From Chiloscyllium plagiosum (lineage: Eukaryota), in the NCBI RefSeq assembly GCF_004010195.1, contig NC_057718.1, forward strand, positions 40,707,563 through 40,727,562: DNA of 20,000 nucleotides, given 5' to 3'. The notes under the pieces are model-generated. The model searched no databases. It had not been told where the DNA came from and worked only from the letters and a program-made list of their open reading frames with translations. Both the position numbers and the translations under genes were made by a program. Positions 2,508 through 19,514 of the stretch are shown piece by piece; position 1 is the first letter of the stretch; each line of letters begins with the position of its first letter.

Positions 2508-3133
2508 AAAATTGTGGTTACAAGAGCAGGTCAGAGGCTAGGAATTTTGCGAAAGAAGGGTTATACTTGAAATGTTGACTTCTTCACCTCCTGATGCTGC
2601 ATGACTTGCTGTGTTCTTCCACCATCCTGCTAGTTTATCTAATGTGAATATTCTCTATTTGCCTGGCTGAATGCAGCTCCAACAACACTTAAGAAACTAT
2701 ACATCATCCAGGATATCCCATTTCATCAGCACTCTATCTGCCACCTTGAGTATTAATTCGCTCTACTACTAAATACAGCAGCAGCACTGCGTACCATTTA
2801 TGAGATGATCTACTACAATTTACAAGCATCCGTTAACAACACCATCCAAACCTCCGATCTGAACCATCTGAAAGAACAAGGACAGCAGATGCATGGGAAT
2901 ACCATTGTCTGCAACTTCCCCTCCAACTCACGTACCATCCTGATTCGGAACTCTGTCACCATTCCTGCACTATGGCTGGATCATAATGCTGGAACTCACT
3001 GTAGTATTACTGTGCGTGTAGCTACACCTCATGTACAGCAACAGTTCAAGAAGGCAGCTCACACCCACCTTCTCAAGGGCACTTTGGAATAGCCAGCAAA
3101 GATTGACCTCATATCCCAACAATAAATGAAAAA
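2508..3133 (+). mobile_element. Decayed LINE (CR1/L2 group) 3' fragment, interrupted at about 2551-2640
   Basis: attgtggttacaagagcaggtcagaggctaggaattttgcg encodes IVVTRAGQRLGILR, an RT C-terminal motif. The 3' UTR (cagttcaagaaggcagctcacacccaccttctcaagggca...aaatgaaaaaa) resembles 16945-17120. Confidence 0.7.
2551..2640 (+). mobile_element. Penelope-type terminal-repeat fragment with degenerate hammerhead-like head
   Basis: gaaagaagggttatacttgaaatgttgact...gatgctgcatgacttgctgtgttcttcc has the same layout as 18398-18496 and 13990-14062. Confidence 0.6.
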
Positions 3134-4781
3134 AGGCTTCTCTAATTTTACATTCAAAAAATTGCTTGGACACTTGCTAAAAAGAATTTGGCAGTGAACT
3201 GATTCTTTGTACACATTGTTACATTTAATGGAGATGTTTTCAGTCCTTTGTCCATAAGACCTTGAACTCAGATCGTCAAATTAACTCCTATGCTTTATTG
3301 CCAACTTTGCATTTCAGCAAAGCAGCAATTGTTCCACATTAATTTGAAAATAATGACAGAGTGGCAGTCTTACTTGAAAAGGGAAATTGATTTAAATTGG
3401 ACTGCAAGTGCAAACTAAACCACCAGATGCCACACTTTGACAAGCTGAGCAGGGTAGTTAAAAAAAAATCTACTTATCATTGTTCTTAATTAGATTCTCT
3501 CAGTAACACCTGTAACACATCCAAACATTGAACACTGTTCAGGAAATTGCAATCTTAAGTAGTATGTGGTATTATATATTAAGAGAGTGCTGTTTGAATT
3601 GCATCAAAACCATATAATTCTTTCTATCCCATGACTGCACGTATTTGTTTCTTTGTTGTGAAAGCACATTCCATGGGACGTAAAAGGCCATACTAATGAA
3701 TGTATCCAAGAGCATCTCAGTCACAATATATGCTTTCTCCTCCTTGTCTTTAGTCCGGCATTCCAATGCAAAGTCTTGCTATTGGTTACATTGAGCAAAG
3801 TGCCGAAGTTAACAATATTGAAAACTTCTAGGGATATAGCAAAGCTACTTTTGTGTGGCCCGAATACAAAAACATTGCCTGAGCACTCCAAATGTTAACT
3901 GGAAGAGCACCATCATCTGGCACAGATGTCTTTATGCATGCACAGTTTCAATATAAAACTGGAATTTGAATAAATCAGCATAGTTCTGAACTTTTGAATG
4001 TGAACAAGCATGGTTTTGAGTTGGCTCATGTGAGGATGCACATTTTTCTGTTCAAGAACAAGGATTATTAGGAGGCACACGAATTTACCTATAGTTACCT
4101 GGAAGTCTGAGGCTTAGTGCATTGGTCCTCAATTAATTCTAAGAACTTATTTCTCATGTGACTTATTGGTTGTGTTACCATTGTAATGGGAGGAAGTTGC
4201 GGGCGATCAAGTTCCACAATTCCATACTCTTATAAATGTTGTGATTCAATCACCAAAACGGTCAATTGTTTCCCTTTTGCTGTCCAGAGTAAAAGACACT
4301 TTTGTCAGGCTTCTTTAATCCCTTTACCACATGACATACCTCATTCTTAAATCAAATGGCAAAACTGGGTTATATCTGAAATTAGAACGAAGACACACAC
4401 AAGTTAACAAAGACATTGCAGAGGCGATATTCCAAAAAGTGTAAAAAGAAAACACATGAATCATCCAATGGTTTGAAAACTATAAGGTACAACTTGATGA
4501 ATTCTCATAGTCCACTAGGATTCTCTTCATGAAACTGAATTGTTGAGAGCCATAACTTTAGAACATCTTCCAATCAAGGCTTCGGTTTGGATGGAAATCA
4601 GGCTGAATCTAAATTTTTGGTTGGTTACCATAGTTCAGCTTTCCATGGTTTACAAGGTAATCAAGTTACCAAGATGTGGAAACTCCCTCAGATTCCCAAG
4701 GAAGAAAGGGAATTATAGCCTTATAGCAGTTTTGAAGATTTTCTTCTGTTTGACCATATATTTAAAACTGTTTAATTTATT

Positions 4782-5680
4782 TGTTATATATTAATACCAA
4801 TTTTGGAATTTTGATTTTAATATTAAGTCATATGGGTGATAGTTACTTTTGTGAAAAGTGTTCTTTAAAGGAAAAACTCAGTGTCCTTCTGAAACAGTGA
4901 CCAAATTAAGTACGTGTCAGAGAACAGGTGACTGTTAGGAGAGGCCTTGAAGTGTTAACAGAAATTGTTTATATTGTAGTAATTTACAACATGGGAGGGT
5001 AAACATTGAAGGTTGTTAGCTTGTTTTTCATTCAGAACAATCAATTAATCATTCATAACAATGATTTTTGTTTAGAAAACCGAGAAATTGAAAGTTTTGA
5101 AGCAAGTTTGGAAGAGGCTTGACTGGGATCAGAAACAATTATAATTTTCTCTCATTAAAGAATTAGAGGATGGTTGAGGGAAAACACAGTCACCTCAGTA
5201 CAAAACCTTCATTTTTGCAGTGACCAAACACAGGGTTTGGTTAGAAAGCTGCAGGTTATTAGAAGCTGGGAAAATCTAAGCTCTCAGATTGTGCATACTT
5301 TTGGAAGAATATGCCACAGCTCACAGCAAACAAACTGGGTGAATCAGTTGCATAACATTTAGCATGTTAACAGAGAGGTGTAATTTCTCTTTTTTTAAAT
5401 CCCTGAAATGGAGTGCAGGGTAATAGGTTGAAACTTGGTTTTAGTGTATGCTTAAGATATTTCAGTGTTCAATATTTTGATAACTTGGTTTTTACTTATT
5501 TTATGTTGTGTAATAAACATTTTTTTTGTGTTGTTGGAAAAATTCTGTGGTCTTGTGTGACTCTGTTTCTGTGACTGTCCACCACTACAAATAAACTAAT
5601 TTTAAAAAACACATGATATATCAAGCCTGATTTCATTCAGGAAATTGACCTGTTCAGTAGTCCAGCTGGTATCCAAGGTG
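4782..5680 (+). mobile_element. Possible old solo-LTR-like repeat
   Basis: AATAAA at about 5511, followed by atcaagcctgatttcattcaggaaattgacctgttcagtagtccagctgg, which I recall as the end of a shark LTR-like repeat. Boundaries are uncertain. Confidence 0.3.
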
Positions 5681-6300
5681 TATGAAACAGAAATCAAATC
5701 CAAAAAGGTAGCTAGGCAACCATCAGTACAGGGATCCCCTAGTTTCTTCCAAAGCTAGCTTTTCCAGTTAGTAAGGACAATAAATCACATTTCTTATGTC
5801 CCTGAAAGCTTTGCTGGGCTATTTTTCCAAAGTCACTTGACTGTAATTAGCAGCTGAATCAAATTCATATTAAATTGTTGATCTCATTTCAAAGACTATT
5901 TCATGGCTTCCCTTCAAACTTTGGTAGAAATGCTATTTAATTCAGGAAGTGTCAAAATATTTCAATAGTTTCCAGTTTTTTATATAGTTCACAAGTATTC
6001 CCAACAGAAGTTGGATTCCATTTCTTTCCTCAAATCCACTGTTATCTGTTTTCACGTTGTCTATCTGCTATCATCATTTGGTCATCAACAACATCATAGG
6101 TGTCAATTGTTACTGCACCCACATAGCTGCTACCATATTGGAAAGTGTAAATGCCAACTCACAAAATCTTCAGCTACACCAAGGAAACAATGTTGCTACC
6201 CAAAATTTGGTTATACTCCCCAAACTGAAATGAGGATCATAACCTTTAATTGTCTACTGTCTTAAAAAAATGCTTACACAATGAAGACGAGCTCAGCTAT

Positions 6301-6695
6301 TCAAGATGGCAGCACCGGCACTGTATACCTGTCCGGTCCAGGCTAGACATACTCATTATCTCTCCTTTTGTCTTTTAAGCTTTTCTTCTGCTTTTATTCA
6401 ATTTCCTGATATTACGGGGAGGCTGGAGCAGAGGTGGTTTTGACTGGAATGGGGACTCATTGCTCCGAAAGTCCGATGTATGACCTTCTGGGTTTGGCGA
6501 AGAGATGTTGGCTGCAGCAATGGCAGACCATGGCTCTGGGCGGTCTAGAGCAGAGACTTACAGAGACCTTGCATAGGTCCTGGAGCTATGTTTGGGACCT
6601 GGCTGATTCTTCTGTACTTCAAAATGGCGCCAGATTATGGTGATAGAACACTTTTCACTGTATCTCCCGAGAATTATGTGACAATAAATCATTCA
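6301..6695 (+). mobile_element. Unclassified short non-autonomous retroelement
   Basis: Begins caagatggc and ends tgtgacaataaatcattca. Its 3' part (ttcaaaatgg...tgtga...aatcattca) resembles 15244-15547. Confidence 0.45.
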
Positions 6696-6996
6696 AGCAA
6701 GTACTTGATTTACAAAATCATATTTTATAAGGAGAATTAATCTTCATTTGACACATAATGAGATTCAATGCCTGCCTTTTGACCATAGTAAAGTTAAAGG
6801 GTTTGAATGAACGGTGAATGGACTGTTCAAAGATGATCAGTCATGAGTAACAAATAATATTACTTGTTAAAGAGCAGACTTTCTGCCAGATGCTATCTGT
6901 GTACAATACATTGTTGAAGTAGACATTAAGAAATTATTCAGCCATTGGATATATAGCAGTACTTATGTTTCCTCTATATACATATTGGGGTGGTCC

Positions 6997-7030
6997 TATA
7001 TATATATATTATATATACATGTGTGTGTAT
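6997..7030. repeat. (TA)n/(TG)n microsatellite
   Basis: tatatatatatatattatatatacatgtgtgtgtat seen directly. Confidence 0.85.
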
Positions 7031-7879
7031 AAATATATTTGACATGAGCACATATGACCCCATACCAGATGCTGGCACTGGGCCGGTGCTCAGTCTTCCA
7101 GTCTTCTTGGTTTTTCTTCATTTTCTGCCAACTTGTGGATGTGCAATGTGACAGGTCTGCAATGGAAAGGCTGTACAGTTTTAAGGTCCCAACTGTTCCC
7201 ACAAAAGCATGTTTGACAAGCTCAGTCCAGATGCACACAAGCAAGTTAATAAATCCTCAGGGTTTAGGATTCTCACAGCTTTGGCCATTAACAATCTCAA
7301 CACTTTCCAAGCCAGAGGAAACCAGCAGTAGGTGAGAATAATAGTCTTCATAGAAATTGGGAACAATATCATGCTTGGAGTTTCTTTAACTGTGCTCTCT
7401 GTTTACTGACATCCAATCACTGAAAGTACAAAAACACTGCCTGCAACAGGGCAGGGAGATTCTCAGCCTATGACTCCTCACAAATTTACTCACTTCACCT
7501 TTTTAGTAATCACTTCCACCATGAGCAAAATATGGACCTATGAGAGACACTTAAATGCATCACTCCTTGTAGATATTAAAAGGTTAACTGCTGTTAAGAG
7601 TACATCTCAGAAGACATTACTAGGTGAAATTAAAAAAGTACATCAGTGGCAACTTTAGAAATCAGTTACATAGTATTTCAGATGTTATCTCAGATCCAGC
7701 TTTAAGGAGCTTAAGTGCCAGTCAAGAGATTAGAATATGGAGCCAGAGGATTTGCTAAGATCTCTGTGCCATTCAGTTTAAAGGTGATTATGGAAATTTG
7801 CTTCAAAGGCAATGCTGTCTGATTGTCTAGGAACTCGGTGTAGATGGTCTTGGGAAATCCACAGAGTAATTAAAAAAGT

Positions 7880-8460
7880 GAAAAGCAATTTCACATGCTG
7901 GAAATCTGAAATAAAAGCAGAAAATGATGGAAAACCTTTGCAGGCCGGACACTATTTGTGGAGGGAGACACAGAGTTCAGGTCAGTGAGCTTTCATCAGA
8001 ATTAAGGCAAGTTAGAGTCGTGTTTGGCTTTAAGCGAATGAAGGGGGAATGATGAAGAAAAATGCTAAAGGGGAGATTGTGATAACAGGAAGTGCAGGAG
8101 CAGTGACAAAAGAGTTGGTGGTGCAACACCAAAGGGATTGTTAAATGGGCAAGGAATAAGTGACGTTTCTAGAGGAGCAAATTAGTGTAGATGCTGGAAT
8201 CTGTACGAAAACAAAAATGCTGGAAATCACAGCAGATTAGGCAGCATCCGTGGATTGAGAGCAAGCTAATGTTTCAAGTTGAGATAACTCCTCATCCTAC
8301 TTCTCGAGAGGAGTGTGAATGGCAAAATGGTGGATAGCTGCTCTCCAAAAGAGAAAACAGAAACAAGAGAACAACCAAAACCAAAAACGAAGACAACATG
8401 GCAAGAGAGGTTATGTGTGATATAGTTGAATGCTGTGTTGAGTTCAGAAGAGCACCTCGT
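7880..8460 (-). mobile_element. Penelope-like element 3' fragment (GIY-YIG tail remnant and terminal repeat)
   Basis: Minus-strand SSELNTAFNYI (about 8420-8455) resembles the PLE GIY-YIG end 'PxGLNxEFxxF'. It is followed by a pyrimidine-rich UTR and tctgatgaaagctcactgacctgaactctg, homologous to 13991-14027. Confidence 0.6.
8178..8300 (-). mobile_element. Nested Penelope-type terminal-repeat fragment with hammerhead-like head
   Basis: Minus strand reads ggatgag-gagtt-atctc-aactt-gaaacatt...gatgctgcctaatctgctgtgatttccagca. Flanks ttctagaggag (8167-8177) and ttctcgagaggag (8301-8313) are a possible target-site duplication. Confidence 0.55.
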
Positions 8461-8564
8461 CAAAGTAATTTACCTGCTGCATAAGAATGGAACAGAAATA
8501 CAATTTCATTTAATTACTGGAGAGTGAATTACAATAAGTACATTGAATTAGAATTTTCTTTACG

Positions 8565-9203
8565 ATTTCAAACAAGTATGCTGTTTTGAAAAATGTAGGG
8601 GGTGATGGATTCTCAGTGGAACATAACACGAACAGCCAACTTTCTGGTATTGAGACTGGCTCTAAAGCAATGAGGGATACCTCAGGTTCCAAGAGATCAA
8701 TTGTGTTAGGGGATTCTCTAGCCAGAGGTACAGACAGATGTTTCTGTGGCCAGCAGCAAAAAAACAGAATGGTGTGTTGCTTCCCTGGTGCCAGGATCAA
8801 GGATGTCTCAGAGAGGGTGCAGAATGTTCTCAAGGGGGAGAGGGGTCAGCAGGAAGTCATTGTCCACATTGGGACCAATGATATAGAAGGGAAAAAGGTT
8901 GAGATTCTGAAGGGAGAGTACAGAGAGTTAGGCAGGAATTTAAAAAGGAGGTCCTTGAGAATAGTAACATCTGGATTACCCCCAGTGCTATGAGCTAGTG
9001 AGGACAGGAATAGGAGGATACAGCAGATGAATTCATGGTTGAGGAGCTGGGTGTGTGGGAGAAGGATTCACATTTTTGGATCATTGGAAGCACTTTGGAT
9101 AGAAGTGACCTGTACAAGAAGGATGGTTGCACTTAAATTGGAAAGGAACTAATATACAGGCAGGGAAATTTGCTCGAGCTGCTCGAGAGGGTTTAGATTA
9201 GTA
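8565..9203 (+). pseudogene. CR1 ORF1 remnant, SGNH/GDSL esterase domain
   Basis: Motifs VLGDSLARG, CFPGARIKDV, VHIGTND and DLYKKDG.HLNWKG (about 9106-9148). In-frame stop at 8991-8993 and frameshifts downstream. Confidence 0.88.
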
Positions 9204-9822
9204 AGGCGGGTATGGCGGCCCAGAGAGATAGTGAGGGAAGCGATCAATCTGAAACTGGTGCAGTTGAGAACAAAGGTGAGTCAAACAATCAGGGCAGGCA
9301 GGAACAAAGCAGAGAACAAGGTTGGACTGATAAATTAAATTGCCTTTATTTCAATGTAAAAGGCCTAATAGGGAAGGCAGATGAACTCAGGGCATGGTTA
9401 AATACATGGGACAGGAATATCATAGCAATTACAGAAACATGGCTCAGGGATGGACAGGACTGGCAGCTTAATGTTCCAGGTTCCAAAGCTACAGGAAGAA
9501 CAGAAAGGGAGGCAAGAGAGGAGGGGGAGTGGCATTTTTGATAAGGGATAGCATTACAGCTGTGCTGGGGGAGGATATTCCCGGAAATATATTCAGGGAA
9601 GTTATTTGGATGGAACTGAGAAATAAGAAAGAGATGATTACCTTATTGGGATTGTAGTATAGACCCCCTAATAGTCAGAGGGAAATTGAGAAACAAATTT
9701 GCAAGGAGATCTCAGTTATCTGTAACAATAATTGGGTGGTTATGGTAGGGGATTTTAACTTTCCAAACCTAGACTGGGACTGCCATAGTGTTAAGGATTT
9801 AGATGGAGAGGAATTTGTTAAG

Positions 9823-10136
9823 ATTAGATTAGATTTGTCTACTTATAGTGTGGAAACAGACCCTTCGGTCCAACAAGTCCACACCGACCCTCTGAAGAGC
9901 AACCCACCCAGTCCCATTCTCCTATGTTTACCCCTGACTAATGTACCTAACACTATGGGCAATTTAGCATGGCCAATTCACCTACACTGCACATCTTTGG
10001 ACTGTGGGAAGAAACCAGAGTACCCAGAGGAAACATACGCAGACACGGGGAGAACGTGCAAACTCCACACACACAGTTGCCCGAGGTGGGAATTGAACCC
10101 GGATCTCTGGCACTGTGAGGCAGCAGTGCTAACCAC
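9823..10136 (-). mobile_element. HE1-like V-SINE inserted antisense in CR1 ORF2
   Basis: Minus strand shows a tRNA-like head (cagtggttagcactgctgcctcacag; B box ggttcaattcc), a V-domain (gtgtggagtttgcacgttctccccgtgtctgcg), a LINE-derived tail and a (TAATC)n end. It splits the ORF2 peptide EEFVK|CVQE. Confidence 0.92.
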
Positions 10137-11732
10137 TGTGTACAAGAAAAATTTCTGATTCAGTATGTGGATGTACCGACTAGAGACGGTGCAAAACTTG
10201 ACCTACTCTTGAGAAATAAGGCAGGGCATTTGTCTGAGGTATCAGTGGGGGAGCACTTTGGGGCCCGCGACCATAATTCTATTAGTTTTTAAATAGTGAT
10301 GGAAAGAGATAGACCAGATCTAAAAGTTGAAGTTCTAATTTGGAGAAAGGCTAATTTAGATGATAATAGGCAAGAACTTTCAAAAGCTGAATGGGGGAAG
10401 ATGTTCGCAGGTAAGGGAATGGCTGAAAACTGGGAAGCCTTCAGAAATGAGATAACGAGAATCCAGAGACAGTATATTCCTGTTAGGATGAAAGGAAAGG
10501 CTGGTAGGTATAGAGAATGCTGGATGACTAAAGAAATTGAGGGTTTGGTTAAGAAAAAGAAGGAAGCATATGTAATGTATAGACAGGATAGATTGAGTGA
10601 ATCCTTAGAAGAGTATAAAGACAGTAGGAATATACTTAAGAGGGAAATCAGGAGGGCAAAAAAGGGGACATGAGATAACTTTGGCAAATAGAATTAAGGA
10701 GAATTCAAAGGGATTTTACAAATAGATTAAGGACAAAAGTGTAACTAGGGAGAGAATAGGGCCCCTCAAAGATCAGCAAGACGGCCTTTGTGTGGAGCCA
10801 CAGGAAATGGGTGAGATACTAAATGAATATTTTGCATCAGTATTTACTGTGGAAAAGGACATGGAAGATATAGAATGTATGGAAATAGATGGTGACATCT
10901 TGAAAATTGTCCATATTACAGAGGAGGAAGTGTTGGATGTCTTGAAATGCATAAAAGTGGATAAATCCCCAGGAACCAAACAGGTGTACCCTAGAACTCT
11001 ATTGGAAGCTAGGGAGTGATTGCTGGGGCTTCTTACTGAGATATATATATATCATCGATAGTCACAGGTGAGATGCCGGAAGACTGGAGGTTTGCTAACA
11101 TGGTGCCACTGTTTAGGAAAGGTGGTAAATGAGCTTGATATCGGTGGTGCATAAGTTGTTGGAGGGAATCTTGAGGGACAGGATGTACATGTATTTGGAA
11201 AGGCAAGGACTGATTAGGGATAGTCATCATGGCTTTGTGCATGGGAAGTCATGTCTCACAAACTTGATTGAGTTTTTTGAAGAAGTAGCAAAGAGGATTG
11301 ATGAGTGGCAGTATGGACTTCAGTAAGGCGTTTGACAAGGTTCCCCATGGGAGACTGGTTAGCAAGGTTAGATCTCATGGAATACAGGAAGAACTAGCCA
11401 TTTGGATACAGAACTGGCTCAAAGATAGAAGACAGAGGATGGTGGTGGAGGGTTGGTTTTCAGACTGAAAGCCTGTGACCAGAAGGATCAGTGCTGGGTC
11501 CACTATTTGTCATCATTTATATAAATGATTTGGATGTGAGCACAAGAGGTATAGTTAGTAAGTTTGCAGATGACACCAAAATTGGAGGTGTAGTGGACAG
11601 CGAAGAAAGTTACCTCAGATTACAATGGGATCTTGGTCAAATGGGTCAATGGGCTAAGAAGTGGCAGATGGAGTTTAATTTAGATAAATGTGAGGCGCTG
11701 CATTTTGGGAAAGCAAATTTTAGCAGGACTTA

Positions 11733-11866
11733 NNNNNNNNNNNNNNNNNNNNNNNNNNNNNNNNNNNNNNNNNNNNNNNNNNNNNNNNNNNNNNNNNNNN
11801 NNNNNNNNNNNNNNNNNNNNNNNNNNNNNNNNNNNNNNNNNNNNNNNNNNNNNNNNNNNNNNNNNN
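11733..11866. other. Assembly gap (N run)
   Basis: Run of N within CR1 ORF2. Confidence 0.99.
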
Positions 11867-12520
11867 AAGATGTTGACAGGGTTGGAGGATTTGAGCTACA
11901 GGGAGAGGCTGAACAGGCTGGGGCTGTTTTCCCTGGAGCATCGGAGGCTGAGGGGTGACCTTATAGATGTTTATAAAATCATGAGGGGCATGGATAGGAT
12001 AAATAGACAAAGTCTTTTCCCTGGGGTGCGGGTGTCCAGAGCTAGAGTGCATAGGTTTAGGGTGAGAGGGAAAAAGATATAAAAGGAACCTAAGGGACAA
12101 CATTTTCATGCAGAGGGTGATACGGGTATGGAATGAACTGCCAGAGGAAGTGGTGGAAGTTGGTACAATTGCAACATTTAAAAGGCATCTGGATGGGTAT
12201 ATAAATAGGAAGGGTTTGGAGGGATATGGGCTGGGTGCTGGCAGGTGGGACTAGATTGGGTTGGGATATCTGGTCGGCATGGACAAGTTGGACCGAAGGG
12301 TCTGTTTCTGTGCTGTACATCTCTATGACTCTATGACTCTATATCTTCACTTTCTTGAACTGTCATGGATCACCAGTAAATCGAAGAGATTTCCCTCACT
12401 AAATGATTGAAGTAATTTCCAGGCTTGCTGTAATTTTGTTCTCTCATTTAGAAGTTGAAGCAGAGGTCAAATGCTCTCAATAGATGGGTACATGAGCCTC
12501 AGTTATAGGCATAAGATATA

Positions 12521-12617
12521 CACAGAGGAGCCTCGATTATCCAGCATTTGATTAACCAGATTTTGGATTATCTGAACAAGATCGTGAGGCCCTGATGCTT
12601 GGCTAACTATGTTATCC
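12521..12617 (+). mobile_element. Left end of a Tigger/pogo-like (Tc1-mariner) MITE, truncated by a Penelope insertion
   Basis: cagaggagcctcgattatcc just after TA resembles Tigger-type TIRs. Internal gattatc/gattaacc subrepeats are present; no right TIR was found. Confidence 0.5.
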
Positions 12618-12619
12618 AT

Positions 12620-13123
12620 GGAGAAAGTGAGGACTGCAGCTGCTGGAGATCAGAGTCGAGAATGTGGTGCTGGAAACGCACAGCCATTCAGGCAGCATCC
12701 GAGGAGCGGGAGAGTTGACGTTTCGGGCATAAGCTGTTCATCACAAATGAGGCTTGTGGGTGGGGGCTGAGAGATAAGTGGGAGGGGGTGGGGTTGGGGG
12801 GAAGGTAGCTGGTATGAAANNNNNNNGGGTTGGGGGGAAGATAGCTGGTATGAAAGTGAGGGAGAGGGTGACAGGTCAGAGGGGGCAGTCATGGATGGGT
12901 CTGGAGGGTGGTGCCGAGTTGGAGGCTTGGGATTGTGGGGGGGGGGGAGGGAAAAGCTGCTGAAATCCATATTCCTCCTGTGTGGTTACAGGGTCCCAAG
13001 ACGGAATATAAGGCCTTCCACCTTCAGGCATCGAGTGGTAACGGTTTGGCTGTGGAGGAGGCCCAGGACCTCCCCCCACATTATCCCAACCTCAAGCCTC
13101 CAACTCAGCACCACCCTCCAGAC
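12620..13123 (-). mobile_element. Penelope-like element 3' end: GIY-YIG C-terminus, UTR, hammerhead-bearing terminal repeat and inverted 5' piece
   Basis: Minus strand 13069->12953 translates VLGLLHSQTVTTRCLKVEGLIFRLGTL*PHRRNMDFSSF, matching the PLE GIY-YIG end 'E..LI..LGTL.P.G.N'. Terminal repeat at 12620-12750. 13093-13123 is a 30/31 inverted copy of 12899-12929. Confidence 0.85.
12717..12744 (-). ncRNA. Minimal type-I hammerhead ribozyme-like motif (degenerate)
   Basis: Minus strand gTGATGA-acagc-ttat-gccc-GAAACGTC. The 3' half (GAAAC and GUC) is intact; the first core C and the left arm of stem II are mutated. Confidence 0.6.
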
Positions 13124-13159
13124 ACAGGTTCCTTTTTATACTTTTAACAGAGGCAGAGG

Positions 13160-13455
13160 AGAAGCAATAGGGCGGACAGCATAGAGACCCTGTGCAAACG
13201 ACATAGGGGTTGTTAATAGTGGAGAAAGAAAACAAACATAAAAGGGGTGGGGCAGGGGTAAATTAAGGTGTGAAAGAGAGAGATTTGGCCCTTGCTTCTG
13301 AGCACAAAGTAAGCAAGATACAAACATGAGATAGGTGGGGGGCAAGTGGGGCTGGGGGCTAGGAGAAATGAAGGGCATAAATAGTGGTCACGTTTAGAAG
13401 TTGTTAAATTCAAAGTTGACACCTCCAGGCTGTAGAGTCCTTCAACTGGAAATTG
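13160..13455 (-). mobile_element. Second Penelope-like 3' fragment (GIY-YIG C-terminus and UTR)
   Basis: Minus strand 13438->13394 translates TLQPGGVNFEFNNF*, followed by a C/T-rich UTR. Confidence 0.7.
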
Positions 13456-13465
13456 TTAAATCTCG

Positions 13466-13730
13466 ACAGTGCAGGAAGCAGCCATTTGTCCATTGAGTCT
13501 GCACTGAACCTCTGTAGAGCATTCCACCCTTCCCACTCTAGCCCCGTATCCCCGTTTTTACTATGGCCAATCGACCTAACCTGCACATCTTTGGACAGTG
13601 GGAGGAAAGCGAAATACCCAGCAGAACGAAAACAGGGAGAACGTGCAAGCTCCACACAGTCACCCAAGGCTGGGATCGCACCCATGTCACTGGTGCTGTG
13701 AGGCAGCAGTGCTAATCACTGTACCACCCT
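13466..13730 (-). mobile_element. Older HE1-like V-SINE
   Basis: Homologous to 9823-10136 (ctgcacatctttggac..gggagaacgtgcaa..ctgtgaggcagcagtgctaa) but more diverged. Confidence 0.85.
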
Positions 13731-13948
13731 GTGAAAATGTAGTATTGGCCCTTGTGTTTGAGTTGTGCTTTGTTGGAAAATTACAAGCTCTCATGCAAAC
13801 ACTTCTGTCTTGGGCATGTCCTGAGAGCTTTGGAATAAATAAACCAACACTAACAGAGGCTTTGCTGAAGATAACAGAAGCAGCAGCGGAACTGAAGCAG
13901 GAGCCATGGAGTTAAGGAGGTAGAAGTGAACATTTCAGTAATGGTGCG

Positions 13949-14062
13949 AAAACAGAAATTGTTGGACAAACGCAGCAGGTCTGGCAGCACCTGAAGAAGG
14001 ATCTTTGGACCTGAAATGTTAACTCTGCTTCTCTCTCCACAGATGCTGTCAAATCTGCTGAG
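13949..14062 (+). mobile_element. Penelope-type terminal repeat with an inverted 3' piece in front
   Basis: 13973-13989 is a 14/17 inverted copy of 14044-14060. The sense part starts at ctgaaga (13991). Confidence 0.65.
13991..14020 (+). ncRNA. Minimal hammerhead ribozyme-like motif (degenerate)
   Basis: CTGAAGA-aggatc-tttg-gacct-GAAA-tGTT. Both core boxes are intact; GAAAT probably derives from GAAAC by CpG decay. Confidence 0.55.
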
Positions 14063-15243
14063 GAAGTAAGCACAGAAATTGCTGGAGAGTGCATTTGGGA
14101 CTGGAAGCTCATCTCAGGATCCAGTGCAACACCATGGTGGTGCACTGAAGTGAGAGTGAAACAATGCTGTACTGTGATCATAGCAATTATGCGAGGAGCC
14201 TCCACTGCTAACCCTGCTTCATTTTACGAGGTTGGAACATGGTTCTTGTGTTCAATTAGGACGCTGGTCACCTGCTCCACCATTGGCACAATTTGGATCT
14301 CAACTTGATTTAAAATTCTAGAATCCCTGGAGTAAGCTGTTGTGTTGGTTCTCCCGAGAAAGAATCTTTGTAATGAACCATTGACAAATCGGAAGGGGTC
14401 CAGATTGTAACTTGGCTTAATTCCTCAGTTACATCCCAAACATGTATCTCATCGCACTCACCAAACAGGCTACTAAGCTGCCATTTGCGAATTAAGAAAT
14501 TGAGGATGTTGGTACTGTCAGCATAAGGTTTGGTTTCACCTTAAATCCTCTAAAGCTATGGATCTTTAAGGGATAAGCAGATAATCCAGTATTGGTAAAG
14601 TCTATTAAATCACCAAACCTATGCCAAAATGTGATGTTTCTTGATTCTGGTCTGTTTCCCAGCCACTCTGTTACATTCCAGTTGGAGATGCAAATGGTTT
14701 GTGCTGGAATGGCCAGGAATTTGGGAAACAGTCTAATTTTGTTGAGGAATAATCCTTGAACCCAGAAGCAGCCATTTTTGTTTAAAGATAGCATGAAGCA
14801 GGATGGCCAAGTCTGTACCTTTGGATATGTGCTGCTCCTCTTTCACTTGTTGTCATGACCATTTCCAATGTAGAAATTTTCTTATAGAGTCATAGAGATC
14901 TACAATACAGCAAAGGCTCTTCAGTCCACTGCACTGGTGGAAAACAACCAGCTAAATATTTTCATCTCATTTCCAACACTTGGCCCATCACCTTGTATGC
15001 TTTGGTGTCACATGTATACATCTAAATACTTCTTAAATGTCATGAATTTAAAATTTCTACCTCCATCATCCGTACAGGCAGTGAGTTCCAGATTCGCAGC
15101 ACCATCTGTTTGAAAAAGTTTTCTCACATACCCAGTCAGCCTTCTGTCAGTTCCCTTATATCCATGTGCCCGGTCATTGACCCTCCTCCAAGGGGAAAGG
15201 TTACTTCTTGTTTCCTCTATCTAGTCCTGTCATAATTTTGCAC

Positions 15244-15547
15244 AGACTTTGATATTGGTTAGAGGCAGTGGTGAGGCCCAATGGTGAATGCTGGCACTTG
15301 AGGATGGACTACTTCAACGTTGGTTGTGTCTGACTGCGAGGCAGTGGAGGATGGATGGCGGTGCAGGCCCCACCGATGTTGATGATCTGGCTCAGGACTG
15401 ATGGACTGTCTTTAGGCTAATCTTTCCTTTTTTCCCTCACCCTCAAATTGTTCAAAATGGTGTTGAACTGTGGTAACAAATGAGAGCTTTTTGTTGAATT
15501 TTATTCTATTCTTATCAAAACATACATGTGATATTCAATCATTCATT
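15244..15547 (+). mobile_element. Unclassified short retroelement nested in CR1
   Basis: Interrupts CR1 homology and ends catgtgatattcaatcattcatt, like 6301-6695. Confidence 0.45.
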
Positions 15548-15765
15548 GGCTAATTGAGGCAAGAATTCCATATGATTTCTTAACCACTTTATCTCCCTGT
15601 CCTGAGGGACCTGTGGATATGTAGCCCAAGGTCCCTTTGATCCTCTGTGCTTCCCAGGGTCCTATTGTTCATCATGTATTGCCTTGTTTGTCTTGCACAA
15701 ATGCATCACCTCACATTTATCTGGTTGAACTCCATTTGCCACTGATCAGCCTGTTTGACCAGCCC

Positions 15766-16011
15766 CACATTCTCCCCGTGTCTGCGTAGGTTTCCTTCGG
15801 GTGCTCCAGTTTCCTCCCACAGTCCAAAGAATGTGCAGGTTAGGTGAATTGGCCATGCTAAATTGCCCGTAGTGTTAAGTGAAGGGGTAAATGTAGGGGA
15901 ATAGTTCTGGGTGGGTTGCTCTTCAGAGGGTCGGTGTGAACTTGTTGGGCTAATGGGCCTGTTTCCACACTGTAAATAATCTAATCTAATATAATCTAAT
16001 GTAACCTAATC
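15766..16011 (+). mobile_element. 5'-truncated HE1-like V-SINE nested in CR1
   Basis: V-domain cacattctccccgtgtctgcg...cccacagtccaaag, tail gggcctgtttccacactgta and (TAATC)n repeats. Confidence 0.9.
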
Positions 16012-16944
16012 TCTTGTCATTCCAGCCTACCCTCCTTACTATTTACCACTCCACCAATACTTGAATCATCCGCGAATTTAGTGATCAACCCCCCCTATGT
16101 TTGAGTTTCAACCATTTATATAGACCACACAAAGCCCCCAACACTGATCCCCATGGAACTCCAGCAGGCACAGGCTCCAGTCACAAAAGCACCTATCAAC
16201 CATCACCTTCTGCTTCCTGCCACCCAGCCAGTTCTGGATCCAATTAGCCAAATCTTGCATCAAATGGCTCATACCTTCACCATCAGTCTCCCGTGAAGGG
16301 CCTTATCAAAAGCCTAGCTGAAGTCAAAGTTGACCACATCAAATGCATTGCCATTATCTACATATTTGGTTACCTCTTTGAAAAATCCAATCAAGTTGGT
16401 CAGATATGACTTCCCCTTAACAAAACCTTGCTCACTGTTCTTGATTAATCACTGCCTCTCCGAGTGAAGAATAATTCTGTCCCTCAGAATTGCTTCCAAT
16501 AGTTGCCCCACTCCCAAGGTTAGACTGACTGGCCTATAGATTCCGGGTTTATCCCTTGATCCCTTCTTGAACAATGGTACCAGCCTTGCTGTTCACAATC
16601 CTCTTCCTAAACAGCAATGTGTGTCATTAAGTATGAGCCTTAGACTGAAAGATATGACTGGGGTAATCTGTAAATTAATACCTAATACCCTTCTTGCTCA
16701 GCTAAATGCTTAAAATGGGACTGCTGCAACATTCCCTAGTCCTTCTGCTCTTCTTGTTTAAGAATAGAAGCAACAGAAATAAAAATAGAAGTCTTAATCC
16801 AAGGGCTGAGCAGTATTTTGCGAGTGAACTGTGTGTGTATAGGGGAAAGGGAGCTTCATGTGGAAGGAAGCAGAAGGTAATCATTGGTGTCCATGACATC
16901 GGTTGTGTTTACTTTGCTGCCTTTACTTACACCAGTACTTTAGA

Positions 16945-17120
16945 GTCATTTAGTAATCACTGGGTCAAACACCGAAACTCCCTTCCTAACACTGTGGGTG
17001 TATCTACATCAAAATAGACTGCAGGGGTTCAAGAAGTTTTCTAACCACCTCCTTAATTAGGGATGGGCAACAAATGTTGGCTTTGTCACAGATGCTCATC
17101 TCCCATTGAATAAGCAAAAT
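16945..17120 (+). mobile_element. LINE 3' UTR fragment
   Basis: Homologous to about 2950-3133; ends aattagggatgggcaacaaatgttggc...ctcccattgaataa. Confidence 0.7.
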
Positions 17121-17375
17121 TGATATAATTGCCCCTGAATCTACCCCAGTGATCTATGAGAATTCACAATGTATTACTATCTGGCACACCAATAGATTAA
17201 TAATGCTATTTGTCATGTTGCAATTTTGGTGCAACTCCTGTTTTTTTTATCACAATCAAATGTCAATCCTTTTGCTGCTTTGAAAAGCAGCGTTATAGGT
17301 CTGTGCTGTTTGATGGAAGTGGCTGGAATAAGTTCAAGGGACGGAGCCTTATGATTTTTTTTGGCTGAGTCTGAG

Positions 17376-17678
17376 CTATGTCAAGTTTTTTTTTGTGAGG
17401 CCTTAGTGAGTTCTGTATCTGACCAAACCCACCTCTTTAAGTATTTACCCCACCCCTATAGCTTTTCCCACATCCAATTCCAGCTTCACTGTTCTACACA
17501 GCATATCCAGAATAGCTCTCCACTCACCTATGTCAAGTTTTTTTTTGTGAGGCCTTATTGAGTTCTGTATCTGACCAAACCCACCTCTTTAAGTACTTAC
17601 CCCACCCCTATAGCTTTTCCCACATCCAATTCCAGCTTCACTGTTCTACACAGCATATCCAGAATAGCTCTCCACTCA
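17376..17678. repeat. Tandem duplication, period 152 bp, two copies
   Basis: 17376-17526 versus 17528-17678; I count only two substitutions (ttagtg/ttattg and tattta/tactta). Confidence 0.95.
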
Positions 17679-18367
17679 AGAGATGTGCCATCTTTAAAAG
17701 CTGCTGTGTAAGGTAAAGAGGGTAAATGAGGTTGCACAAGGCAAAGTGTCCCACGCTTCTCTTCGCTTCCTCACACTCATTCTGGATCTGCTACTGCATC
17801 CACCTCCCACCAAGGCTCACATTCTGCCACTCTTACTGCAGCGTCTGACTTCACTTGCTCTCACCATCACCACTTGTTCTTGCACACCACTAATCCTGCA
17901 TGCTCTTTGCACTGCCTTCTCACTCCTCCGGGACACGCCACCCCAGCTTTCCCCTACCCCACCTCTCACTAACACCCACATTAATCACACTCAAATCACC
18001 TGTGTTTCTCATTGGAGGAGAAGACAGCCCAAAGCAGAGCCCATTGGGTCAGAAGGTGCCTGACATAAGGCTTCTTGCCTTTTTTCTATGCGTTCATAGG
18101 ATGAGGATGTCGCTGGCATTTATTGCCCATCCCTAATTGCCACTGAGGTCTACCACACTGGAGTGGGTGTGGAGTTCCCATGTGGGCCAGACCAGGTAAA
18201 GATGATCATCCCCTCAAGGCCATTAATGAACTAAATGGGTTTTCCAAACAGTCGGCAATGGATGCATTGACACTATTAGACTCTCATTTCCAGAGTTTTA
18301 TTGAATTCACACCATCTACCAAGACACAATTCAATCCCAGAACTTTACTTGGGTCTCTGGATTATTA

Positions 18368-18496
18368 GGAGAAAGTGAGGACTGCAGGTGCTGGAGACAT
18401 TCCTGATGAAGGGCTTATGCTTGAAATTTTGATTCTCCTGTGCCTTAGATGCTGCCTGATCTTCTGTGCTTATCTGGCGCCATACTTTTCACCTCT
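18368..18496 (+). mobile_element. Penelope-type terminal repeat with inverted 3' tip
   Basis: 18368-18397 matches 12620-12649 in the same orientation (29/30), while 18398-18496 matches about 12655-12749 in the opposite orientation. Flanked by duplicated ctctggatt (18355-18363 and 18493-18501). Confidence 0.8.
18403..18430 (+). ncRNA. Minimal hammerhead ribozyme-like motif (degenerate)
   Basis: CTGATGA-a-gggc-ttat-gctt-GAAA-tttt. The 5' half is intact; the cleavage triplet region has decayed. Confidence 0.6.
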
Positions 18497-19514
18497 GGAT
18501 TGATTGTTCAGCAGCAATACCACTGGGCCATCATGTCCACTGGGGAGAGAATCCTGGCTTTTGCAGGACAAGACTGAGATTATTCTTGTGGGCATGTAGA
18601 GACATCCATGTATCTTTATGTGAGTAGGTACCACCCAAGCACACCACCCCTACCTTCCCCCTGCCCAACCCCCCCCCACACTTGGCCATTCATTCCAAAG
18701 ACGGTCAACATAAGTTTCCCCTCTAGGCTCACCTAATCAAACATCCACGAGCAATGGGCTCCACTGCTGAGAAGGTTAACTCCACCCTAGCAGAACAGGG
18801 AGTAGACTGAGATATAATGAGGGGGGAGAGGAGGATGAAGGAGACTTTGGTGGCAGGGGTAAGTAATTTTGCACTTTTTAAAAATAAATATCACCGACTT
18901 AATCTGTTAGTCTCTCTGTGTAAGCCTGAGTGGCTTGGTGACAGCAACAGGCATGACCTTACAGCCACAGCTGAAGGTCCATGGATGGACATCCTTGCTG
19001 AGAGGTTGGTAGCACGAGGAACAAGACGTATTCAAGTCTTGGCTCATCCTTGTATAACATCCCTATCCTTTCTCTGCCTCTGTATCCAGAAGTGGACCCG
19101 TCAATGAGTTGTTCAGCAATGTCTCTGGCAGAAAGGTACAGTACACAAAGGGGGACAGTGCATCAGGACGTCCAGGGGATATGCAAGTCTGTGAAATGCA
19201 CAGTAGATGGACCGGGTGCATGCTCCTTCCATTTAAAAGTCCTAATAGCATTGTGTTCTGCAGCCCCATCCCTCACAGTCCGAGTCACTTACCCTGCTCA
19301 CTCTCACTGTGGGTGTAATCACTTTTTTCCCCTTTGAGTCCTTTCAATTTGCTGCACAATGGAAGATGACGGCCAGTGCTTCCTGGTCAATGACTTGCAG
19401 CCTCTACTGGGATGTATGGGTGAGCTGCAGCACATCCAGATCCCTAGGTCTCTCGGCAACCCAGTTGCATGCACCTGTCCACCTTTCCCACTCAGTCCCT
19501 GGCATCTGTGGTGA

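Follow-up and report, generated by a model that had tools for sequence, protein, structure and literature searches.

Dispersed hammerhead-like motifs in a chromosome raise the question of whether they are working ribozymes, relics of mobile elements or coincidences of sequence. It is posed here by 20,000 nucleotides of Chiloscyllium plagiosum (RefSeq assembly GCF_004010195.1, contig NC_057718.1, positions 40,707,563–40,727,562 of the forward strand; hereafter the window), in which an earlier note had described six motifs resembling minimal hammerhead ribozymes (min-HHRs) at the head of repeats of Penelope-like elements (PLEs). Most probably these motifs are decayed, homologous min-HHRs located on 5′-truncated 3′ ends (pseudo-long terminal repeat, pLTR, plus tail) of several PLE families, which were inserted by reverse transcription and are predicted to be dead. 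The type of element is already published, and the copies in the window are real but decayed.

All six motifs were found where they had been proposed, with position C3 at 2550(+), 7999(−), 8298(−), 12744(−), 13991(+) and 18403(+), in two cases one base beyond the range claimed; below they are called the 2551, 7970, 8265, 12717, 13991 and 18403 copies. Two boxes alone are weak evidence, barely over chance: the pattern CTGANGA-N8-30-GAAA gave 5 matches over the window against 1.93 expected (about 2.6-fold), at least 5 appeared in 8 of 200 shuffles, and only 2 of the 5 belong to the motif set. A strict box-stem-box scan of the window registered the 18403 copy as its sole match. The set is real because the copies are homologous, not because of the boxes. 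A leave-one-out nhmmer profile recovered five of the six copies with 29.3–42.5 bits (31.3 for 2551, 36.1 for 8265, 42.5 for 12717, 32.4 for 13991 and 29.3 for 18403), the maximum in 20 shuffled windows being 9.8. Over their first 68 nt, nine of the ten pairs of recovered copies share 44–50 letters and one pair 42, random pairs (n = 300) having a median of 33 and reaching 43 at most. The 7970 copy is the weakest member (36–45 letters in common with the others) and was joined to the set because its tail resembles related contigs aligned to the 13991 copy, with 18/19 and 22/30 letters shared with their loose-end consensus by hand count. A related downstream segment, claimed earlier for most copies, was confirmed: GATGCTG is exact in five of six and degenerate in 7970. 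Sequence comparison therefore supports the view that the six sites are homologous, mutated min-HHR relics on short PLE-type ends and that they represent at least three lineages, judged by stem II and downstream sequence. Of the former proposal that at least three ribozyme-bearing PLE subfamilies have spread here, the homologous relics and the lineages remain, while none of the six is an intact ribozyme.

Decay becomes evident when the copies are scored against the min-HHR consensus in the supplement of PMC4209133. Box C3-A9 is exact in three copies, GAAA in five, both in two, and the complete consensus in none. The 2551 copy (position 17 at 2576) has two changes in box 1; 7970 keeps an exact box 1 and four of five stem II pairs, having lost GAAA and the cut site; 8265 is changed at C3 and U4, with all five stem II pairs formed; 12717 (position 17 at 12717) has G for C3 and two broken stem II pairs. 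Both boxes are exact in 13991, where stem II forms four of five pairs, 15.2/16.2 is changed and the 5′ strand of helix I is missing, and in 18403, where the palindrome is lost. The pair G10.1-C11.1 is intact nowhere (four G-U, one A-U, one C-C), and Watson-Crick pairing is found in one copy of six at the 15.2/16.2 palindrome and in three at the first helix I pair; three of the first four helix I pairs form in 12717 and 18403, those of the other four copies being poor or missing. U16.1 is kept in all five copies that retain the cut site and, together with the spacing, the extra base and the in-register stem II, matches the published consensus. The 11.1-12 step reads TG in five of six copies, and the 15.2-16.2 step reads TG, TG, CA, TT, CG or is deleted; the T at 11.1 in 7970, which faces A, may be original. 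Damage concentrated on these two CG steps would fit methyl-CpG decay after insertion, and every copy here is predicted to be unable to cut RNA.

Pairs of stem II were counted by script, as MAFFT left this stem out of register. At its first four positions 20 of 24 pairs form, and sliding the strands by −2, −1, +1 or +2 leaves 10, 11, 10 and 5. Two-sided changes between copies were found at 10.4/11.4 and 10.2/11.2. These observations, made on six related decayed copies, are suggestive of covariation; the earlier assertion that stem II differs yet stays paired by covariation thus keeps its pairing and two-sided changes, on the basis of six decayed single copies only. RNAalifold applied to five of the six downstream segments returned an unconvincing 7-pair hairpin of −0.04 kcal/mol.

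The cores are embedded in the following pieces.

2545–2631 (+): PLE-type 3′ stub, degenerate min-HHR with downstream segment (leave-one-out profile)
7885–8003 (−): PLE-type 3′ end with a tail like that of the 13991 family (core comparison, tail likeness)
8004–8165 (−): pyrimidine-rich stretch (0.71) preceding the 7970 core, its putative pLTR
8168–8177, partner 8304–8313 (+): direct repeat with 9 of 10 positions matching, candidate target duplication of the 8265 stub (equalled by 8 of 150 random window pairs)
8178–8303 (−): short tailed stub, a likely insertion into the pLTR of the 7970 element (profile, core comparison)
8314–8420 (−): pyrimidine-rich stretch (0.70), putatively the more upstream portion of the pLTR that includes 8004–8165
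8419–8541 (−): possible, very decayed C-terminal remnant of an endonuclease (in-window six-frame comparison)
12620–12649 (−): 30-nt 3′ tail of the longest copy, with the family 3′ end at 12620 (repeat match, loose ends)
12650–12749 (−): min-HHR with downstream segment (profile, core comparison, related contigs)
12750–12949 (−): pyrimidine-rich pLTR-like stretch (0.75) of 200 nt with a short N run (composition)
12950–13072 (−): endonuclease-like remnant of 41 codons with one stop (reading frame, variant pattern)
13087–13126 (+): inverted partial copy of 12896–12935 at the 5′ junction (40 nt, 90%)
13949–13990 (−): inverted 3′ piece abutting C3 of the 13991 copy (profile, sequence comparison)
13991–14058 (+): stub starting exactly at C3 (profile, core comparison)
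14059–14088 (−): short inverted piece like the family 3′ part (weak repeat match)
18355–18363, right copy 18493–18501 (+): exact 9-nt direct repeat, candidate target duplication (equalled by 5 of 150 random window pairs)
18368–18397 (−): inverted 30-nt tail, 29/30 identical to 12620–12649 (repeat match)
18398–18497 (+): stub starting 5 nt before C3 (18403) and ending at the start of the tail (profile, core comparison)

Three copies (2551, 13991, 18403) and probably 8265, whose stub begins 5 nt before its C3, start within about 5 nt of this position, and two copies extend upstream. Inverted 5′ pieces accompany three of the six (12717, 13991 and 18403); opposite-strand joints 13993/14030 were registered in 6, 2 and 4 contigs of three DNA runs. 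Candidate target duplications of 9–10 nt occur at two of the six copies searched (8265 and 18403), and the same search found none for 2551, 7970, 12717 and 13991. Since the 9/10 direct repeat bounds the 8265 stub and both sides of it are pyrimidine-rich, this stub was probably inserted into the pLTR of the 7970 element. A composition of 70–75% pyrimidine is a common property of the sequence upstream of the longer copies (8004–8165, 8314–8420 and 12750–12949, all on the minus strand). A fragment at 13915–13938(−), close ahead of the inverted piece in the 13991 insertion, also resembles the 2551 copy from GAAA on (22/25, E 0.002) and is perhaps a seventh remnant.

The family of the 12717 copy was followed beyond the window by aligning three DNA runs from three organisms and one RNA run (about 2% of a poly(A) single-cell run) on 12590–14110 at 80% likeness. 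C3 is the sole deviation of this copy in box C3-A9, and the family majority carries it: C at 12744 makes up 94%, 95% and 91% of contig depth in the DNA runs and was found in 125 of 135 RNA reads. The majority likewise supplies G10.1 at 12736 (90%, 90% and 95% of depth; 304 of 327 RNA reads), and at 12745 it is C with 78–87% of depth. The window copy itself keeps the extra A, C11.1, GAAA, CG at 15.2/16.2 and UC. At the three core and helix positions listed, the family majority departs from the decayed copy toward the consensus; for the 13991 family one loop variant is among the rows listed. The 12717 family has a sharp 3′ end at 12620, which is 97 nt beyond position 17, the predicted cut site, and 1912, 579 and 1301 contigs of the three runs end there with unrelated AT-rich flanks (agreement 0.34–0.35). 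In run X1 the end module accumulated a summed depth of 1.4–2.7 million, the adjacent upstream bin 64 thousand, the endonuclease-like part 0.8–8.9 thousand and the unique flank about 10; this depth is no copy number, and divergence of the window copy depresses it locally. The family is very abundant. In all four runs summed depth falls 15- to 24-fold from bin 12692–12742 to bin 12743–12793, and in the RNA run the unique flanks collected almost no reads. One could take a loose end of the RNA reads at 12734 (267 reads, agreement 0.49) to prove that the hammerhead is where copies begin; this was rejected, because a sister family with other upstream sequence fits it equally.

What ties these pieces to PLEs is in the first place their non-coding architecture, which is stronger evidence than the endonuclease frames. 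The fixed 3′ end, the 30-nt tail at one end only, the inverted 5′ pieces and the short target duplications are insertion traits described for endonuclease-containing (EN+) PLEs (PMC3846280, PMC8557442). Such insertions (PMC3846280, PMC8557442, PMC2377424) share with ours 5′ truncation, an adjacent inverted 5′ copy, solo pLTRs, a 30–40-nt tail at one end and 8–10-nt target duplications, and differ in that the pieces here are much shorter, mostly 70–130 nt, and that one inverted part consists of the tail only.

Coding remnants add less to this link. The earlier note had placed two copies directly downstream of GIY-YIG remnants; the database searches did not bear this out, neither remnant contains the GIY-YIG motif itself, and each lies 120–210 nt upstream of the nearest core. 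The frame at 12950–13072(−) we take to be the C-terminus of a PLE GIY-YIG endonuclease. Among the variants listed it has four majority differences, and it fits a former coding sequence because two of them are synonymous and two give Glu. The assignment to the C-terminal end of such an endonuclease is plausible; the searches gave no database match for this remnant beyond a single protein hit, discarded as a spurious repeat protein. Its best non-self match among 1992 six-frame pieces is 8419–8541 (score 41, next 38), and one of 2000 shuffled queries equals this score. The latter remnant, for which the databases likewise gave no match, is a weak candidate for a second endonuclease end, and it probably belongs to the element carrying the 7970 copy.

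Pattern scans turned up no relative of the window repeats: they gave one and no matches in viral contigs (the one by chance), none in GTDB genomes and none in plasmids. Metagenomes contributed 30 loci, and blastn at 1e-5 registered no similarity of any of them to the window. Ten of the 30 represent a min-HHR family of another eukaryote, one locus of which, L024, lies downstream of an open reading frame (ORF) with a Pfam GIY-YIG match; it serves as a positive control for PLE architecture only. This family (L002, L005–L008, L017, L022, L024, L027 and L030) is well preserved, has a pyrimidine run and CAG before C3, and some of its copies stand head to head.

Based on these data one can propose how the stubs arose. 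A PLE endonuclease would nick AT-rich DNA, and on uncleaved RNA reverse transcription would start at a fixed internal site some 90–100 nt beyond the hammerhead, as one can reason from PMC11167929; copies would run across the predicted cut site because the template is not cleaved. Synthesis of most cDNAs would end after 70–130 nt, in many cases where the hammerhead begins, and some cDNAs would become linked to an inverted piece whose primer was the opposite DNA end. Decay after insertion would be neutral, the change of CG steps being visible in the sequence. Cleavage by the motif in its parent element would require a dimer or the assistance of a protein (PMC4209133, PMC11167929).

A close parallel is Poseidon PAc of Anolis carolinensis (Frangieh et al. 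2024, PMC11167929), which has a hammerhead in its pLTR, AT-rich targets, copies that span the cut site and an optional tail between two start sites. Counted into the ORF of PAc, cleavage occurs at 26 nt and reverse transcription starts at 111–118 nt, which places the start about 85–92 nt past the cut site, as compared with 97 nt here. The shark families differ, as far as their sequence tells, by having no full ORF and a remnant that a Poseidon-type profile leaves unscored.

One insertion, 18368–18497, allows the joining step to be looked at closely. Its inverted part equals 12649–12620 and its forward part 12749–12651, 12650 alone being skipped, with the break placed at the boundary of the tail; the forward part shares its final five bases with the target duplication. 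In this single case the geometry is that described for twin priming. As in L1 twin priming (Ostertag and Kazazian 2001 via PMC2246262), a distal part of the RNA would have been copied inward from one break end and the preceding part attached at the other end in opposite orientation; the difference is a PLE-type template without poly(A), known from one insertion. We put forward only tentatively, and consider rather doubtful, the broader idea that PLE replication produces such stubs systematically and not by random truncation, with two reverse transcriptase start sites acting as twin primers and run-off before the hammerhead. The enzyme would then begin at its fixed site in the pLTR lying upstream and run off at an RNA end or barrier just before the hammerhead. 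At 18368–18497 the tail would have been copied from one DNA end and the adjoining part from the other via the 5-nt match, with one base skipped and synthesis halted 5 nt before C3. In Penelope of D. virilis an intron ends at helix I, and a splice acceptor right before the hammerhead is conceivable here too. If the idea is true, this lineage supplies very many insertion junctions from which the formation of PLE tails and inversions can be read.

Several results weigh against the interpretation as PLE-borne hammerhead relics. The Rfam covariance models, to which the earlier note had referred the motifs, registered no hammerhead family in the window at E up to 10. Folding of none of the six copies was clearly better than that of shuffles (z −1.5 to +1.05), and the leave-one-out profile missed the 7970 copy. 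Both target duplications are near the 3–5% chance level in windowed tests. The variant data comprise 40 of 160 rows, and among these 12735, 12716 and the 13991 stem do not appear. No pile-up of RNA ends is listed, which at about 2% of one poly(A) single-cell run is a weak test. Within the window and the contigs no reverse transcriptase or GIY-YIG domain was confirmed for these families, and the 12950–13072 remnant had no true match in three protein searches, Pfam and viral contigs. A profile built from Poseidon-type endonucleases (16 of 20 proteins, four being dropped for lacking the motif) also gave this remnant no score, and its clade is therefore probably another one. As a candidate only, we presume a Neptune-like clade. 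Six short peptide terms sought in the searchable supplement of PMC8557442 gave one match, which carries little weight.

Three other explanations have to be considered. The stubs might form a separate non-autonomous family, SINE- or retrozyme-like (SINE, short interspersed element), derived from a PLE pLTR, having its own short transcript and moved in trans by PLE enzymes. The start of at least three, probably four, copies near C3 and the abrupt drop of depth in all four runs would suit such a family, and animal retrozymes are reported to be PLE derivatives, also in one chondrichthyan (10.64898/2026.07.22.740005). However, 5′ extents vary and one copy continues into the endonuclease-like frame; the window contains no tandem array of the unit, whereas retrozymes have canonical type I hammerheads in tandem repeats; and the drop begins inside the motif at mismatches of this very copy, which blurs its exact position. 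We regard this explanation as unlikely, though it deserves more credit than the other two.

Much less probable is a chance likeness, in which the ends of an unrelated repeat happen to contain two short boxes. The small excess of the box pattern, the missing Rfam match and the lack of a confirmed PLE protein would be expected in that case, but the spacing, the extra base, the in-register stem II and U16.1 (5/5) follow the consensus, and the family majority shifts toward it at the three listed positions. Least credible of all, in our opinion, is that the host has retained some copies as functional self-cleaving RNAs. One could point to the two copies with intact core boxes and to 7970 and 8265, lying on the same strand about 300 nt apart; against this, no copy satisfies the complete consensus, these neighbours lack complementary essential parts, and the unique flanks are almost devoid of RNA reads in the portion of the poly(A) run used. 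Decayed hammerheads on truncated PLE ends remain, therefore, the explanation that we hold highly probable.

They are also in line with what is described for metazoan PLEs (Cervera and De la Pena 2014, PMC4209133), in which min-HHRs reside on truncated elements, with several families per genome and thousands of copies. CUGANGA, one extra base, a short helix II, GAAA, a two-base palindrome and UH are common to both, as are several stem II families per genome and a predominance of single motifs on truncated elements; the window copies differ by being decayed. In coelacanth and Xenopus 4,000–9,000 min-HHR motifs are reported (PMC4209133), and summed depth, although not a copy number, hints at far higher abundance here. 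In the searchable supplement of that paper (one file excluded) none of the shark, skate and chimaera terms looked for was found. A 2026 preprint reports hammerhead-bearing PLE-derived repeats in one chondrichthyan (10.64898/2026.07.22.740005). Animal non-LTR retrozymes (PMC7229834; 10.64898/2026.07.22.740005) are likewise non-coding, hammerhead-bearing and PLE-related; they form tandem repeats that give circular RNAs and carry canonical hammerheads (PMC7229834), whereas the copies here are dispersed, minimal and non-tandem. In the literature covered, to which most subscription journals and Repbase, a possible place for such families, do not belong, we found no paper devoted to shark-type stub families or to twin priming of PLEs.

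The remainder of the window is rich in other repeats. A decayed long interspersed element (LINE) at 8547–12340(+), which we take to be of CR1 type, comprises an esterase-like ORF1 and pieces of endonuclease and reverse transcriptase, with Pfam matches to OSK/GDSL-like, Exo_endo_phos_2 and RVT_1 in three of six frames tested; it is interrupted by a SINE-like insert at about 9821–10140 and an N run at 11733–11866. This insert is one of three copies of an abundant SINE-like repeat (9821–10140, 13557–13722 and 15766–15997), of which the copy at 13.6 kb is very deep. Pieces at 15687–15722 and 16273–16499(−) belong to a second LINE copy in opposite orientation, and 17371–17678 is a 152-nt tandem duplication, 97–98% identical, which is either recent or an assembly artefact.

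With these very abundant families, the published class of min-HHRs on truncated PLEs is extended to the genome of a cartilaginous fish. Their 70–130-nt pieces need repeat masking and are not to be taken for host ribozymes. Of wider reach is the geometry of their junctions, which could be used to test how the tails and inversions of PLEs originate.

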